Source of the DNA: Pedobacter sp.
GTDB taxonomy: Bacteria; Bacteroidota; Bacteroidia; Sphingobacteriales; Sphingobacteriaceae
Reading direction: 5' to 3'
Assembly (NCBI RefSeq): GCF_965227205.1
Contig: NZ_OZ245727.1
Span: 608,863 to 672,862 of the forward strand
DNA length: 64,000 bases
Of this stretch, positions 24,031 to 56,916 are shown in pieces. Positions within the stretch are counted from its first letter, which is position 1; every line of letters begins with the position of its first letter. Below the pieces are notes generated by a model that had not been told where the DNA came from, ran no database searches, and saw only the letters and a program-made list of their open reading frames with translations. Made by a program: the position numbers and the translations under genes.

Positions 24031-24083
24031 TGTCATACTGAGCTTGTCGAAGTATAATGCATTTCGACAAGCTCAATGTGACA
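24031..24083. repeat. REP doublet (family A)
   Basis: TGTCATACTGAGCTTGTCGAAG...TTTCGACAAGCTCAATGTGACA. Confidence 0.85.
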
Positions 24084-41654: not shown

Positions 41655-42345
41655 AAAAACCTCACCCTGTGATGTAAGAAGTTAGGCTACTTTTTTAGCG
41701 GCCCTCTCCTTGAAGAGAGGGTTTTAAGGGAGGGGGGTAAAATCCTAGCATTCCGCCGTAAACCACCAACCATTGTTTCCCTCTCTTCCAGGAGAGGGAT
41801 TGTAGTGAAGAACGACGAGCAGAACCTTTAACAGGGAGAGGTTTTAAAAGCTCCGTGTAAATCCGTGGCAAAAAAGGTTAATGAGCTGCATGTTAAAGAA
41901 AACCTCATCCAGTGAACGTAAGAAGTTAGGCAAGTTTTGTAGCTGCCCTCTCCTTGAAGAGAGGGTTTTACGGAAGCGGTAAAACCTAGCATTTGCCACA
42001 AACTTTTATTTCCCTCTCTTCAAAGAGAGGAATTGCAGTTAAGAACTAGGCGTAGAAACTTTAACAGGGAGAGGTTTTAAAAAATCCGTGTTTCCGTGGC
42101 AAAAAAAGGTTAATGGGTTGCATGCTAAATAAAAAACCTCACCCAATGAACGTAAGAAGTTAGGCAAGTTTTGTAGTTGCCCTCTCCTTGAAGAGAGGGT
42201 TTTAAGGGAGGTGGTAAAATCCTAGCATTCCGCCGTAAACCACAAACCTTTGTTTTCCCTCTCTTCAAGGAGAGGGATTGCAGTTAAGAACGAGGAGTAG
42301 AAACTTTAAAAGGGAGAGGATTTAAAATTCCGTGCTTCCATGGCA
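41655..42345. repeat. Three tandem approx. 240-bp palindromic units (CCTCACCC/CCCTCTC-type REP doublets)
   Basis: Units start at about 41656, 41899, 42133; each has AAAACCTCACCC...GGGAGAGGTTTT ends and two CCCTCTC(C/T)TT(G/C)AAG(A/G)GAGGG hairpins. Confidence 0.9.
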
Positions 42346-42393
42346 AAAAAATAACTTAAATAAAATCTGTAAATCTGTGGCTAAAACAACCAA

Positions 42394-50238: not shown

Positions 50239-50697
50239 AGGATTTTTAAACTTTGAGGGGAAACTCCCCTCCTAATTTAGGAGGGGTGGGGGTGGTTTTA
50301 TTAATTTTTGTTCTTTTTCCCATTATTGGTTTGTTTCGGCTCGCCGCCAAATGACTATTTTCTTTTGGCTTAGCCCAAAAGAAACAAAAACCCAAGGCTT
50401 GGAAGTGTTGTTGGATAAATTCGTTAAAACATTTAAAGCGGCAACACAAGCTGCGATGAAGAATCGCAGAGTGTGCGCTGCCTTGTGCTGTGGTAGATGA
50501 AAAATTGTTCAAATGTTTTAGCTTTTTCTCCTTCCAACACTTCCTAGGCCGGATTGCAGGGTGGTCATAGCGAGTCGTCATCACGACTTTGGTCGATAGA
50601 TTTTATAATCACGCTTGTCCTCTTTGGAGGGGGCAGGGGAGGATTTTTAAACTTTGAGGGAAACACCCCTCCTAATTTAGGAGGGGTGGGGGTGGTT
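50239..50697. repeat. 58/59-bp direct repeats (50239-50297, 50640-50697) bracketing family C copy C2 (about 50335-50587)
   Basis: AGGATTTTTAAACTTTGAGGG(G)AAAC(T/A)CCCCTCCTAATTTAGGAGGGGTGGGGGTGGTT present twice. Confidence 0.85.
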
Positions 50698-51868: not shown

Positions 51869-51903
51869 AAAGTCAGTTTTTAGCTTGTTTAGAAACTGAC
51901 TTT
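51869..51903. terminator. Bidirectional terminator between GH43 and MFS genes
   Basis: AAAGTCAGTTT/AAACTGACTTT hairpin between convergent genes. Confidence 0.7.
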
Positions 51904-53128
51904 AATTGCTTTCAGCTAAACTATTTGCCTGTTTTTTATCTAACAAGCTAAAGCCGTATGCACAAATCAAAAGGATACACGCCAAGCCGAACCAAAGCCA
52001 ATTATAACCTAAGTGCTTTGCAATAAAAAATCCAGCCATTGGACCAACTACCTGGGCACAACTCCAGCTCAATGTATAACCTGCAGCATATAAGCCTCTG
52101 TTATGCTCATTACTTCTGCTAATAACCACCGTATTAATAAAAGGTAGCACAAACATTTCGCCAATGGTAAAAGTTACGATGGTTAGTATAGCTGTAAATA
52201 CATGAAAAGTAATCGGCGCACTAAGAAGTAAATAGGAAACGGCAAAGAAAACGGAACCGATAATTATAAAAAACATTGGCGACTTTTTCTTTTCGATTTT
52301 ATTAATCATAATCATTTCGAACAGGGCTATTATCGACCCGTTTATACCAATGATTATTCCGATGGCAAATTCGTCGATGTGCCACTGCTCCTTAAAAAAT
52401 ACCGGAACAACCCTAAACATCAGGAAAGCACATGTAATAAAAAGTGTGGTTAACAGGATAAAACGAACATAAAAGGCATCTTGCCAGGGTTTTAAAATAA
52501 CCATGTTGCTGCGGTTTTCTTTCGCTTTTTTTATAAAATCTTTAACCTGAGGCAATAGAAATAAAATGGCTAAACCTACTAAAATACTCACACCACCTTC
52601 TACAATAAACAATAGCTTGTAATTTATCGAAGCAATTATCCCTGCCATGCTTATCCCTGCAGACCAGCCAATGTTAACTGCAAGTCGGTTTAACGAATAT
52701 GAACGCGTTATTGTGCCTTCTTTTGCATAATGCGCAACCGCAGTAAAATTCGCCGGACGAAAAGCCTCGGAGAAAAAACTGATTACGACTGCTAAAATAC
52801 AGAGTGTAGAAAAATGGGTTATGGTCGAAAATAGTATGAATAACAATCCGCCGATAATTGATGAAAGTATTTGAACAGGTCTGAAACCAATAATATCGGT
52901 TAGTTTACCACCAGTTGCGGAACCCAAAATAGAACCAACTCCAAAGAGCGTAATAATTAAACCAGCATCAATTTCTGAACGGTGCAAACTCTGTGTTACG
53001 TACAAACCCATAAATGGAACAGCCATACTACCGCATCTATTAAACATCATTACAATGCTTAGCAGCCAGGTTTCTTTACTTAGTCCGCTGAATGATGATT
53101 TGTATGTATTTAAAATGAGTTTGAACAT
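51902..53128 (-). CDS. MFS transporter
   Basis: 12 TM pattern; GGKLTDIIGFR motif A. Confidence 0.92.
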   Translation of the reverse strand: MFKLILNTYKSSFSGLSKETWLLSIVMMFNRCGSMAVPFMGLYVTQSLHRSEIDAGLIITLFGVGSILGSATGGKLTDIIGFRPVQILSSIIGGLLFILFSTITHFSTLCILAVVISFFSEAFRPANFTAVAHYAKEGTITRSYSLNRLAVNIGWSAGISMAGIIASINYKLLFIVEGGVSILVGLAILFLLPQVKDFIKKAKENRSNMVILKPWQDAFYVRFILLTTLFITCAFLMFRVVPVFFKEQWHIDEFAIGIIIGINGSIIALFEMIMINKIEKKKSPMFFIIIGSVFFAVSYLLLSAPITFHVFTAILTIVTFTIGEMFVLPFINTVVISRSNEHNRGLYAAGYTLSWSCAQVVGPMAGFFIAKHLGYNWLWFGLACILLICAYGFSLLDKKQANSLAESN

Positions 53129-53203
53129 GGTGCGTTTTCGAGTGCAAAAGTAGTGAAATGGGTTGTGATAAGTGATGAGAGAAATTAAATAGTGAGGGAA
53201 ATT

Positions 53204-53746
53204 CGGAGAGTTTTTCGAAATATAAATTACAAGTAAGTTTGAACGGTTTTAATGGGTTGTCATGCTGAGCCTGTCGAAGCACTTTCCGAATCACGTTCTA
53301 CAATTCCGTCATTGAGAGGCTGATTTTTCATCAGCCGTGGCAATCTCCTTAGCTATCCGTAACATACCCTGCTCACGGTCTTTTCTCAGCTCACCGTCGC
53401 CGGATGGCTCTTTCTTTTGGCTTAGCCCAAAAGAAACAAACCTGAGCGCAGCGAAAGCATGACCACCTGTAAAAACAAATGAAAAAAAGGACATAAACCC
53501 AAGGCTTGCATCTTTTCTTTATTTCAGCTATCGAAATTTTAATAGCGATGATATGAGGCCTTCCATTTCACAAATCCCCATTGGCTGCATATTCAATGCC
53601 GAACTCTTCGAAAATCTGCTATGCCGGATAGCATGGTGGCCATAGCGAGTTGTCATCTCAATCCTAGCGGAGAGATTTTCGAAATATAAATTACAAGTAA
53701 GTTTGAACGGTTTTAATGGGCTGTCATGCTGAGCCCGTCGAAGCAC
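53204..53746. repeat. 79-bp direct repeats (53204-53282, 53668-53746) bracketing a REP and family C copy C3 (about 53390-53660)
   Basis: 76/79 identity by hand; about 50 bp of the repeat is non-REP sequence. Confidence 0.88.
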
Positions 53747-53962
53747 AATCTTTTCTTAAATGGTATTAAATGCCTTATATGGTAAATTTTATCACTCACA
53801 TTACATCGCCACTCTCCGTCATTCTGAACTTGTTTCAGAATCTCCCTACCACATTCCAGGATTCATGTTCTTACCATCTTGCATATTCCTTCGAAAAAAG
53901 GTTCTTGTTTTCGAATAAGGACCAATGAAGAATCCTATAAAGTGCAAAGGAATAGGCAAACA

Positions 53963-54017
53963 GGGGTAGACTTAAGGTAGACTAAAGGCGGTCTTGAGGT
54001 AGACCGGAGGTAGAGTT
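53963..54017. repeat. Five imperfect 11-bp direct repeats (consensus RAGGTAGACTT)
   Basis: GGGGTAGACTT AAGGTAGACTA AAGGCGGTCTT GAGGTAGACCG GAGGTAGAGTT. Confidence 0.7.
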
Positions 54018-54285
54018 GTAAAACTTATTTTTGGGAAAACGCTATAGAATTTATCATCCCTATTGAATAAACTAAAATACAAATTTTACAGCAATAAGTA
54101 AAGGAATGATGGAGCTTTTCGGAAACCCTGAGAAATTACTTTAAGTTCAATAATGGCTGCTAAGGGATTGCAAATCCGTATTTATTGTAAAATACGAAAT
54201 GCTGATTGCTAACCTTCCAAACAGCAAAATTTGTTAAATGAAGTTAAATTGTTTGTAATGGCTAGTGATATCTTTAAATTCAGAC

Positions 54286-55566
54286 ATGAACGCTCTTTCG
54301 AAGAATCTTTCCGTTTTACTTATACTTCTTTCTCCGTTTTTTTGTTGTGGACAAGCCTTAAGCGAACTGCAAGCTTGGCTAACAGATAATACGACAAAAA
54401 TCAATTCCGCTGATACCCTGGGTTTTCAGCTTAATAAAGAATTTTTTAATCAGAAAACGATAATTGCTTTGGGCGAACCCACTCATGGTACATCTGAGGC
54501 ACAAATCAGCAGACATAAACTCCTCGAATTTTTGGTGCAAAATTGCAATGTTAAGTTTTTAGCACTCGAAGCGGTATCAAATTGCGAAGCCGTTAATGAA
54601 TTTCTACTTAATGGCAAAGGAACTGCTAAGGCAGCATGCAAAGCACTGGATATGTGGATGTATGATACCGCGGAAACCGAAAAACTAATGCTTTGGATTA
54701 GAAACTACAACCTGCTGAGAAAGGCAAATGAAAGAATTAGATTTTATGGAATCGATTATGCATTGCAGAAAATCAATGAGCATTTTTTATCTGATTCTTT
54801 GGTTGCTAATGGCATTATATCCAAAAGTTTAATAAGCAGAATAGTCAGTGCTGATTCTAAAACTTTTAATAATAAAAATGCTTCGGTAGAAGAATTAACG
54901 GTTTACAAAAACGAATTAAAATCCCTTGCTGATAGTATTAATTTGCAAAAAAGTTTGATAGTGAAAAAGGTATCAGCTGCTTATTTTTTCTATGCTATTT
55001 ACCTTTGCAAAACACTTGAACAAACCATACAGGCTAAGATATTGGGTAACAAATTACCAATTGCCTACCGCGATAGTTGCATGGCAGAAAATGTTCACTT
55101 CATATCAGCTACCAACAATAATGCGAAGATTTTCGTGGGCGGACATAATGCTCACATAAGGAAAATCGATAAGGCAACGATGGGCTTTTTCTTAAAAAAG
55201 ATTTTTGGCGCTGGTTTTTATACTATCGGAATTTTTGCAGGTGAAGCTACTTTTAGAGCCTTCGTTTTTAATAAGCAAAACTCCATATATGACCTCAAAC
55301 TAAACCAAAGTAAAGATTTGCAAAGGTATTCACTCGGACATGAGTTGAAACCCACAAGTTTTGGTTCATTTTATATTGACTTTAAGTCTTGCAATAAAAA
55401 TTTAATCTATAAACAACTCTTCGAAAAATCAAAGTTTAATCTCTATGCAGGGTGGTTGTATGATCCTGAAAATCCAAAGAAGTATTTTTTATGGGATTCT
55501 TTAACAAAAAATTATGACGCAGTAATCTATTTTAATGAAACCTTTGGGACGGTTGCGATAAAATAA
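54286..55566 (+). CDS. Erythromycin esterase (Ere) family protein, secreted
   Basis: ALGEPTHG, conserved R and ALE, RFYGID, RDSCMAEN, GHNAHI, YDAVIYF; start uncertain (54265 or 54286). Confidence 0.85.
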   Translation: MNALSKNLSVLLILLSPFFCCGQALSELQAWLTDNTTKINSADTLGFQLNKEFFNQKTIIALGEPTHGTSEAQISRHKLLEFLVQNCNVKFLALEAVSNCEAVNEFLLNGKGTAKAACKALDMWMYDTAETEKLMLWIRNYNLLRKANERIRFYGIDYALQKINEHFLSDSLVANGIISKSLISRIVSADSKTFNNKNASVEELTVYKNELKSLADSINLQKSLIVKKVSAAYFFYAIYLCKTLEQTIQAKILGNKLPIAYRDSCMAENVHFISATNNNAKIFVGGHNAHIRKIDKATMGFFLKKIFGAGFYTIGIFAGEATFRAFVFNKQNSIYDLKLNQSKDLQRYSLGHELKPTSFGSFYIDFKSCNKNLIYKQLFEKSKFNLYAGWLYDPENPKKYFLWDSLTKNYDAVIYFNETFGTVAIK

Positions 55567-55766
55567 GCTTATACCTTAATGGTTCTACAGTTTTTATAAA
55601 TTTTGATTTTTAGGAGTTATTGTTGTGCTAACAACAAATTCAAAATTCCATGGATTTCGTGTTTCCGTGTCTAAATATTATTTATTGATTTGACATGAAC
55701 GATAAGCGTTGGTTGATTTTTTTAATTTCCCCGCATTTTTCCTCAACTTAGCGGTATCAAATAATT

Positions 55767-56664: not shown

Positions 56665-56916
56665 GCTTGCCTCGACTCACCGCCGTCGAGTGGCTCTAAA
56701 CTTTTTCTTGATAAAAAGTTTAACAAAAATCAAGGCTTGGATCTGATGTCGGATAAAAGGGATAAAGTTTCTTTTCGGCATCACAAGCTGCGATGAAAAA
56801 TCGCAGAGTGTGCGATGCCTTGAGCTGTGGTTTTATGAAAGTTTTTGCAAAAACTTTAGCCTTTTCTCTTTCCATCATCTCCTATGCCGGATAGCATGGC
56901 GGTGTAGCGGGGCACG
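56665..56916 (-). repeat. Family C copy C4
   Basis: AAACTTTTT-CTTGAT-AAAAAGTTT hairpin with ATCAAG partner at 56729-56734; TGCCGGAT at 56885-56892; internal CACAAGCTGCGATGAA block shared with C2. Confidence 0.75.

Follow-up and report, generated by a model that had tools for sequence, protein, structure and literature searches.

Short extragenic hairpin repeats that crowd the DNA between genes, and that mark where local duplications, deletions and indels begin or end, are familiar from the enterobacterial REP/BIME clusters and the REPIN-RAYT system of Pseudomonas. The locus analyzed here resembles them in these respects. It lies in a stretch of 64,000 nucleotides of Pedobacter DNA (the window), where a 79-bp direct repeat (the 79-mer) brackets a REP-type hairpin repeat and one copy, C3, of a structured intergenic element that we call family C. 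The REPs of this locus, however, are of a Bacteroidota type (GTCAT...ATCTCC) and are interleaved with a structured element of 250-400 nt, and the duplicated core is unique sequence and no REP. Head-to-tail arrays of small RNA genes and minisatellite-like repeats, which change through unequal recombination, offer a second likeness: as in family C, the units share their orientation, are homologous over their whole length, occur in non-integer numbers and differ in number between relatives. Unlike those arrays, family C is built of a conserved structured element with a variable center, exchangeable modules and REP-rich spacers, and neighboring units can be different members of the family, as are C2a and C2b of Pedobacter sp. 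Leaf170. The Flavo-1 RNA motif (RF01705), which is also present in the window, is likewise a multicopy structured intergenic element of the Bacteroidota, but family C matches neither Flavo-1 nor any other Rfam family; the Rfam search with the 79-mer and C3 yielded no matching family for either.

Direct repeats of tens to hundreds of base pairs around an inserted element, the arrangement found at our locus, are also made by the insertion sequences IS1634 and IS1549, whose repeats measure 8-514 bp (PMC2266710). An earlier note on this DNA had regarded the 79-bp repeat as far longer than the target-site duplication of a DDE transposase. The two published exceptions soften this argument, and because of them a long repeat alone does not exclude a DDE enzyme. 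IS1634 and IS1549 nevertheless possess a DDE transposase and terminal inverted repeats, whereas our locus has neither such an open reading frame nor inverted repeats, and the left neighbor of the single-copy allele stays with the right copy of the repeat.

The pair of 79-mers sits in a spacer of 1136 bp between a leftward-oriented MFS transporter gene and a rightward-oriented gene of the erythromycin-esterase family (Table 1). A repeat search recovered the two copies as the earlier note had described them, in direct orientation, at a spacing of 464 bp and with 76/79 identical positions (96%). The mismatches fall at 53211/53675, 53257/53721 and 53272/53736, and at all three the left copy carries T (A on the minus strand). 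What had been taken for about 50 bp of ordinary sequence plus a REP half has to be redrawn: the 79-mer consists of the 9-15 nt at the 3' end of a hairpin repeat, REP_b, followed by a unique core of about 45 nt, the same in both copies (53212-53256 and 53676-53720), and by a complete 25-nt hairpin repeat, REP_a. On the plus strand, the local REPs have the form GTCAT, stem-loop, ATCTCC. The first bases of the 79-mer are CGGAGAG(A/T)T, which form the 3' arm of a complete REP_b at the right copy only; the left copy lacks the 5' half and begins within the REP_b consensus (CGGAGAG...). REP_b is an authentic, recurring type, which is found at eight other places in Pedobacter as GTCATyTCGA..GyAGCGGAGArATCTTTT, and its GTCAT begins 3 nt past the 3' module of C3, a recurrent offset in family C. 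REP_a is a dispersed, short imperfect palindrome with a third copy in the window at 24032-24054. As claimed previously, the 385 bp between the copies contain a REP and the family C copy C3. The parts of C3 are its 5' module (53378-53443), a 55-nt indel with a REP (53440-53494), a unique center and a 3' module (53592-53649).

Table 1. Features of the locus from left to right, in window coordinates.
Feature	Position	Strand	Basis and remarks
MFS transporter gene, left neighbor	51902..53128	-	Pfam MFS_1, E 3.7e-41; orthologues throughout Pedobacter
Left flank x, common to Leaf170	53129..53194	.	BLAST match to Leaf170 loci L073/L078 (~84-85%) ends at 53194
Nine bases (AGGGAAATT) between x and left copy	53195..53203	.	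Alignment; Leaf170 has 89 unrelated bases and the REP_b 5' half instead
Left 79-mer (P1): REP_b 3' fragment, unique core, REP_a at 53258-53282	53204..53282	+	Probable secondary copy, lacking the REP_b 5' half
About 23 unique bases from left copy to REP_c	53283..53305	.	In relatives of runs X29, X25, X28; absent from X16
REP_c, GTCAT...ATCTCC hairpin repeat	53306..53348	+	Sequence; Logan depth 13-36 times single copy in the bins of 53257-53430
Family C copy C3	53349..53650	+	Alignment; nhmmer 57 and 54 bits
REP_b, complete (TGTCATCTCAATCCTAGCGGAGAGAT)	53651..53676	+	Overlaps the start of the right copy by 9 bases; 5' half 17/17 in Leaf170
Right 79-mer (P2), REP_a at 53722-53746	53668..53746	+	Both neighbors as for the single copy in Leaf170
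Right flank y, common to Leaf170 (~93%)	53747..53828	.	Alignment
REP_d	53816..53845	+	Leaf170 homology stops in the REP_d loop, the edge of a 1785-bp indel
Erythromycin-esterase-family gene, right neighbor	54265..55566	+	Pfam Erythro_esteras, E 3.1e-33; absent from Leaf170

The core of the 79-mer is specific to this locus. A 43-nt core pattern searched with up to three mismatches is present at two places only in the 64 kb, namely in the two copies, where none is expected by chance. Among the Logan contigs, four junction-specific contigs are each found at about single-copy depth in four runs that contain this strain, and in run X3 the 45-nt piece common to both copies attains about double depth. 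Since all four junctions occur at similar depth in the four runs and the shared 45-mer is doubled in X3, the two-copy arrangement is real and not an artefact of assembly. The bin over the core has a depth of 19.3 versus 16.9, which is single-copy once the overlap of contigs is allowed for; the REP parts of the region reach 13-45 times the single-copy depth, with a value of about 13 times and many different flanks over 53257-53343. Exact 20- to 23-mers of the core were without a match in one genome per prokaryotic species (searched with a 23-mer) and in the JGI metagenomes (two patterns on the contigs). Such exact patterns missed the copy of Leaf170 described below because its core differs at two bases. 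Pattern counts in the window, Logan depth and the two collections consequently dispose of the suspicion that the 79-mer might itself be a dispersed repeat, as far as its core is concerned.

The allele with a single 79-mer, which the earlier note had proposed to look for, exists in Pedobacter sp. Leaf170 (GCA_920984665.1), where it is free of the REP_c and C3 block. We found it by a BLAST search with the core against the loci collected for family C (a 45-nt match with 2 mismatches). Leaf170 is the closest genome available and its locus is orthologous: the MFS gene is 84% identical at the nucleotide level. In the protein collection, the best MFS relative is 93% identical; exact look-ups of the MFS, esterase and GH25 proteins of the window yielded no entry. 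In the orientation of the window, the order in Leaf170 is MFS gene, x, 89 unrelated bases, the 5' half of REP_b, one 79-mer (74/79 identical), y, and then the sequence that corresponds to window position 55614 onward, with the GH25 gene; REP_c, C3 and the esterase gene are all absent from this locus. The REP_b 5' half of Leaf170 (TGTCATCTCAATCCTAG) is identical to window 53651-53667 at 17/17 positions, and the whole of window 53651-53828 matches L021 6627-6449 with 93.9% identity over 179 nt. Hence the right copy of the window has the same neighbors on both sides as the single copy of Leaf170, and the left copy has neither the REP_b half nor, at close range, the Leaf170 right neighbor. In a simple target-site duplication the left copy keeps the old left neighbor and the right copy the old right neighbor. 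The pair in the window is not of this kind because the REP_b 5' half seen in Leaf170 precedes its right copy, and not its left one.

The Leaf170 allele is itself rearranged, since nothing in the window corresponds to its 89-nt segment. An origin of this segment as a remnant of C3 was considered and rejected, the segment coming out at rank 257 of 2552 tiles; what it resembles most closely nearby is the right flank, of which it contains an imperfect copy in inverted orientation (35 nt, 77%). The 79-mer and REP_b of Leaf170 are thereby flanked by an imperfect 35-nt inverted repeat (L073 2627-2661 and 2785-2819, 77% complementary), the left arm of which is missing in the window. The relatives with 77-81% MFS identity (L001, L003, L074-L077) lack the 79-mer, and their intergenic DNA is either short or unrelated. 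Without an outgroup that possesses the 79-mer, and with a rearranged allele in Leaf170, the polarity of the events is not fixed. Two further differences between the genomes deserve mention. The esterase gene and its flanks, 1785 bp in total (53829-55613), are absent from Leaf170, with one breakpoint in the loop of REP_d, of which Leaf170 retains the 5' half only. Window and Leaf170 agree at 94% of the positions in the non-coding block of REP_b, 79-mer and y and at 83-84% in the flanking genes, a difference that suggests constraint or recent exchange.

Additional alleles emerged from metagenome and RNA runs in the Logan collection; those of X16, X29 and X25 are represented by short, low-depth and fragmentary contigs. 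In X16, one unbroken contig runs from C3 (from 53411 on) through REP_b and the 79-mer into y, and neither x nor the left copy nor REP_c had a contig at the 6-8x depth of this run. For X29, only the context of x, left copy and REP_c was seen, and for X25 both contexts, with a right copy devoid of REP_a. The junction between x and the left copy is found in the relatives of X29, X25 and X28, and those of X25 and X28 combine the left-copy context with a C3 that lacks the REP-bearing segment 53440-53494. The relatives of X16 and X25 carry a 38-nt insertion at 53592 in C3. At position 53211 all relatives have A, so that the T in the left copy of the window is private, and position 53257 is T in every left-context copy and C in every right-context copy. 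In two runs with the same species label, X23 and X24, none of this organism was found. Together these sequences give an allelic series, from Leaf170, which lacks C3 and has a single copy, through X16, with C3 and a single copy, to the window, with C3 and two copies. Such a series at one locus, comprising the absence of the element, the element with one flank copy and the element with two, is rare. RNA-seq and metatranscriptome contigs cover 53307-53463 exactly (X26) and, in a relative (X25, X28), about 53164-53578 including the left 79-mer. This hints at transcription of the region around REP_c and the 5' part of C3, on a strand that the contigs do not reveal and with carry-over of DNA being possible.

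The wider behavior of family C provides the frame in which the repeat pair can be understood. A degenerate pattern of the 3' module detected 67 loci, all of them in Pedobacter, and the survey of other genomes was conducted on 8-kb pieces that contain one exact pattern. Module profiles identified about 170 copies of family C in these pieces. All adjacent pairs within 1 kb (101/101) are arranged head to tail, with a median period of 502 bp (interquartile range 397-588), and the spacing of 464 bp between the 79-mers falls inside this range. Family C is an uncatalogued structured repeat that fills intergenic DNA of Pedobacter with head-to-tail arrays. Tandem duplication is indicated in L029, where the similarity among whole units of element and spacer is 86-95%. 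Isolated 5' or 3' modules, possibly partial units, stand beside 13 of 37 arrays or singletons. Upstream of the MFS gene, Leaf170 has no unit, the window one and BG31 four. The C2 locus comprises one unit in the window and two different ones in Leaf170, C2a and C2b, the second directly after the first. The C2 orthologues (window 56665-56912, L021 5163-5404) are only 59% identical in the 5' module and 90% in the "variable" center, and they have different hairpin sequences, a pattern that is compatible with an exchange of modules between family C copies.

REPs and family C are coupled in space. GTCAT-type REPs start 2-3 nt or 16-19 nt past the 3' module in 25 of 155 copies (16%; L002-L072) versus a background of 1.6%, which indicates a fixed spatial relationship between the two kinds of repeat, and REP_b after C3 belongs to the class with the offset of 2-3 nt. 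As Leaf170 has REP_b without any family C copy, insertion of the element just 5' of the REP is the simpler reading at the C3 locus. About one third of the arrays and singletons have 59-129 nt in common between their outer flanks. In a different part of the window (41655-42351), a 244-bp tandem repeat with 2.9 copies that is rich in CCCTCTCC/GGAGAGGG hairpins constitutes another intergenic tandem array.

A second bracketed case, at 50239-50697 around the family C copy C1, lends no independent support to duplication through insertion. The 59-nt repeat concerned (50239-50297 and 50640-50697) is a G+C-rich double hairpin (…GAGGGGAACTCCCCTCCTGATTTAGGAGGGG…GGTGGTT). Such modules are present downstream of the 3' end of family C in 13 of 20 cases, 11 of these at 38-41 nt, and the arrangement at about 40 nt recurs in many Pedobacter genomes (L018, L057, L041, L012 and others). 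Since the module normally follows family C at a fixed offset, it belongs to the element's own 3' region and is no unique target DNA; it may be an optional 3' extension or a terminator of family C. At the C1 locus, Leaf170 possesses a solitary double-hairpin module and no C1. The left copy of the C1 repeat is best seen as a 3' remnant or a duplicate of a unit. C1 and C3 are alike in that the sequence adjoining the 3' end of the element is repeated 5' of it.

We favor the explanation that the pair of 79-mers is a secondary local duplication of the 3' flank of C3, amounting to 1.17 units of a family C array and with breakpoints at REP hairpins; we give this reading roughly an even chance of being correct. 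In this scenario, the order and the enzymology of which we infer, REP_b, 79-mer and right flank would be the original arrangement and thus the first in time. C3 would next have come to adjoin REP_b on its 5' side, in the way in which many family C copies adjoin a GTCAT-type REP. Later, a second copy of the C3 3' flank would have been placed 5' of the block of REP_c and C3, with the left breakpoint inside the REP_b hairpin and the right one at the outer end of REP_a. The outcome would be a head-to-tail repeat with a unit of 464 bp, present 1.17 times, and such an organization is the usual one in family C. Host recombination or an error of replication may have led there, by one of two routes: through unequal exchange or slippage, after which the C element of the upstream unit would have been lost, or through a template switch at the REP hairpins. 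We prefer these to a staggered cut made in the course of insertion. Once present, the two 79-mers can drive further expansion or deletion through homologous recombination.

Several findings agree with this local duplication. They include the arrangement in Leaf170, the position of the left copy's first base inside the REP_b consensus, and X16 with its C3 and single copy. Copies of family C lie head to tail in the same orientation and with a period like that of the repeat pair, and copy number at the MFS locus varies among Leaf170, X16, the window and BG31. REPs mark other local breakpoints as well, namely the 1785-bp indel in the REP_d loop, the lack of REP_a in the right copy of one relative, and the REP-bearing 55-nt indel of C3. 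Against it stands that a tandem duplication with a subsequent deletion needs more events than a single coupled one, and that the shared outer flanks of 59-129 nt are not predicted by plain tandem duplication alone. At the C3 locus the window has 1.17 units, and none of the relatives showed two complete ones with the same spacer. The repeat is best read as an ordinary local duplication and so reveals by itself no new chemistry of insertion. The allelic series, together with the fixed offsets of the REPs and of the 3' hairpin module, nevertheless supplies testable rules that concern how arrays start, grow and shrink and whether REP hairpins serve as the breakpoints.

The earlier note had proposed integration of a circular or reverse-transcribed intermediate by homology, or a target-primed insertion with a wide stagger. 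Spelled out for the alleles now at hand, REP_c and C3 would have entered on the 5' side of REP_b through a staggered cut that spanned at least 96 bp, REP_b and the 79-mer included, or a circle bearing the 79-mer would have integrated by homology, and the left REP_b half and neighboring bases would have been lost later. We consider this unlikely. That the core is unique to the locus, and that an allele without C3 contains one 79-mer between the same outer flanks, is what this proposal would lead one to expect, and in this part it has held up; repeats of 77-85 nt between the outer flanks of further Pedobacter arrays (L048, L010, L034) and the long repeats of IS1634 and IS1549 (PMC2266710) also speak for it. 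Its geometry has fared less well. The REP_b 5' half lies at the right copy, unlike in a simple target-site duplication, and an extra, precise deletion is therefore needed, and X16 combines C3 with a single copy, the right one. There are no terminal inverted repeats in 52500-54500. The block that would have been inserted is composite (REP_c plus C3) and has internal indels among the relatives, and the sequences after the left repeat differ among the cases, whereas a transposable element would have defined termini, usually inverted repeats, next to the duplication. The case at C1, furthermore, turned out to involve a module of the family and not target DNA. With regard to attL- and attR-like sites of a site-specific recombinase, the 385 bp hold only short open reading frames without a Pfam match, and the four genes that flank the region (MFS, esterase, GH43 and GH25) are unrelated to recombinases. 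Template and variable repeats of a diversity-generating retroelement were rejected as well; both copies are non-coding and none of the four flanking genes encodes a reverse transcriptase.

Active copying of the 3' end of a unit is a rather doubtful alternative. The template, a read-through transcript or a strand displaced up to the REP_a hairpin, would be copied by a reverse transcriptase or by an HUH/REP-associated enzyme, and the left 79-mer would be a nearby, 5'-truncated insert. The duplicate does stop, on its 3' side, where a hairpin repeat ends, and on its 5' side at an arbitrary point inside REP_b. The upstream copy at C1 is likewise the element's own 3' module and ends just past the G+C-rich hairpin, and contigs from RNA runs extend over 53307-53463 (X26) and about 53164-53578 (the relative). 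These contigs are strandless, however, and possibly derive from DNA; a landing just upstream of its own source is left unexplained, and there are two local cases only. An extension of this idea to the whole family is likewise rather doubtful: units of family C would multiply by copying from the 3' end, via read-through RNA or a strand displaced up to a REP hairpin, and the copying would often stop early and leave 5'-truncated copies beside their source. Stubs of this kind would be represented by the left 79-mer and by the upstream module at C1, and full-length products by the arrays. Were this true, family C would be a non-autonomous retro-element or rolling-circle element of the Bacteroidota.

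It is improbable that the allele of the window is a recombinant of two others, one with the 79-mer 5' of C3, like X29, and one with the 79-mer 3' of C3, like X16, with the crossover within C3. X29 with its left-copy context only and X16 with its right-copy context only would fit the role of the parents, and the 59% identity of the C2 5' module next to the 90% of its center is compatible with exchange between copies. The proposal leaves the origin of a 79-mer on either side of C3 unexplained; deletion from the two-copy form could equally well have produced either single-copy context, and the data are fragmentary. Chance, a faulty assembly or the separate insertion of a dispersed 79-bp element on each side, to which the dispersed 25-nt REP_a at the flank might lend some color, can be dismissed as hardly credible in view of the zero chance matches expected, the near single-copy depth of the core per copy, the lack of an exact 20- or 23-mer match in two collections and the four junctions seen in independent runs. 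Local duplication of the C3 3' flank remains our preferred account.

A few observations on the core and its surroundings complete the description. Folding of the conserved block 53651-53850 gave a weak signal (z = -2.1 and -0.9). A Bacteroidota -7 box (TAAGTTTG, 53234-53241) was considered as a conserved promoter element in the core and is unsupported, both core differences of Leaf170 falling inside the box. A third, degenerate copy of the repeat in the left flank was not significant (437 of 2000 shuffles). Over 13 nt, the MFS leader at 53156-53168 resembles the junction of core and REP_a at 53250-53262 (AATGGGnTGTGAT versus AATGGGnTGTCAT), a similarity that could be due to chance or mark an older fragment. 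The same look-alike is present in Leaf170 (L073 2556-2568 versus 2747-2759), and its variable base n matches within each species.
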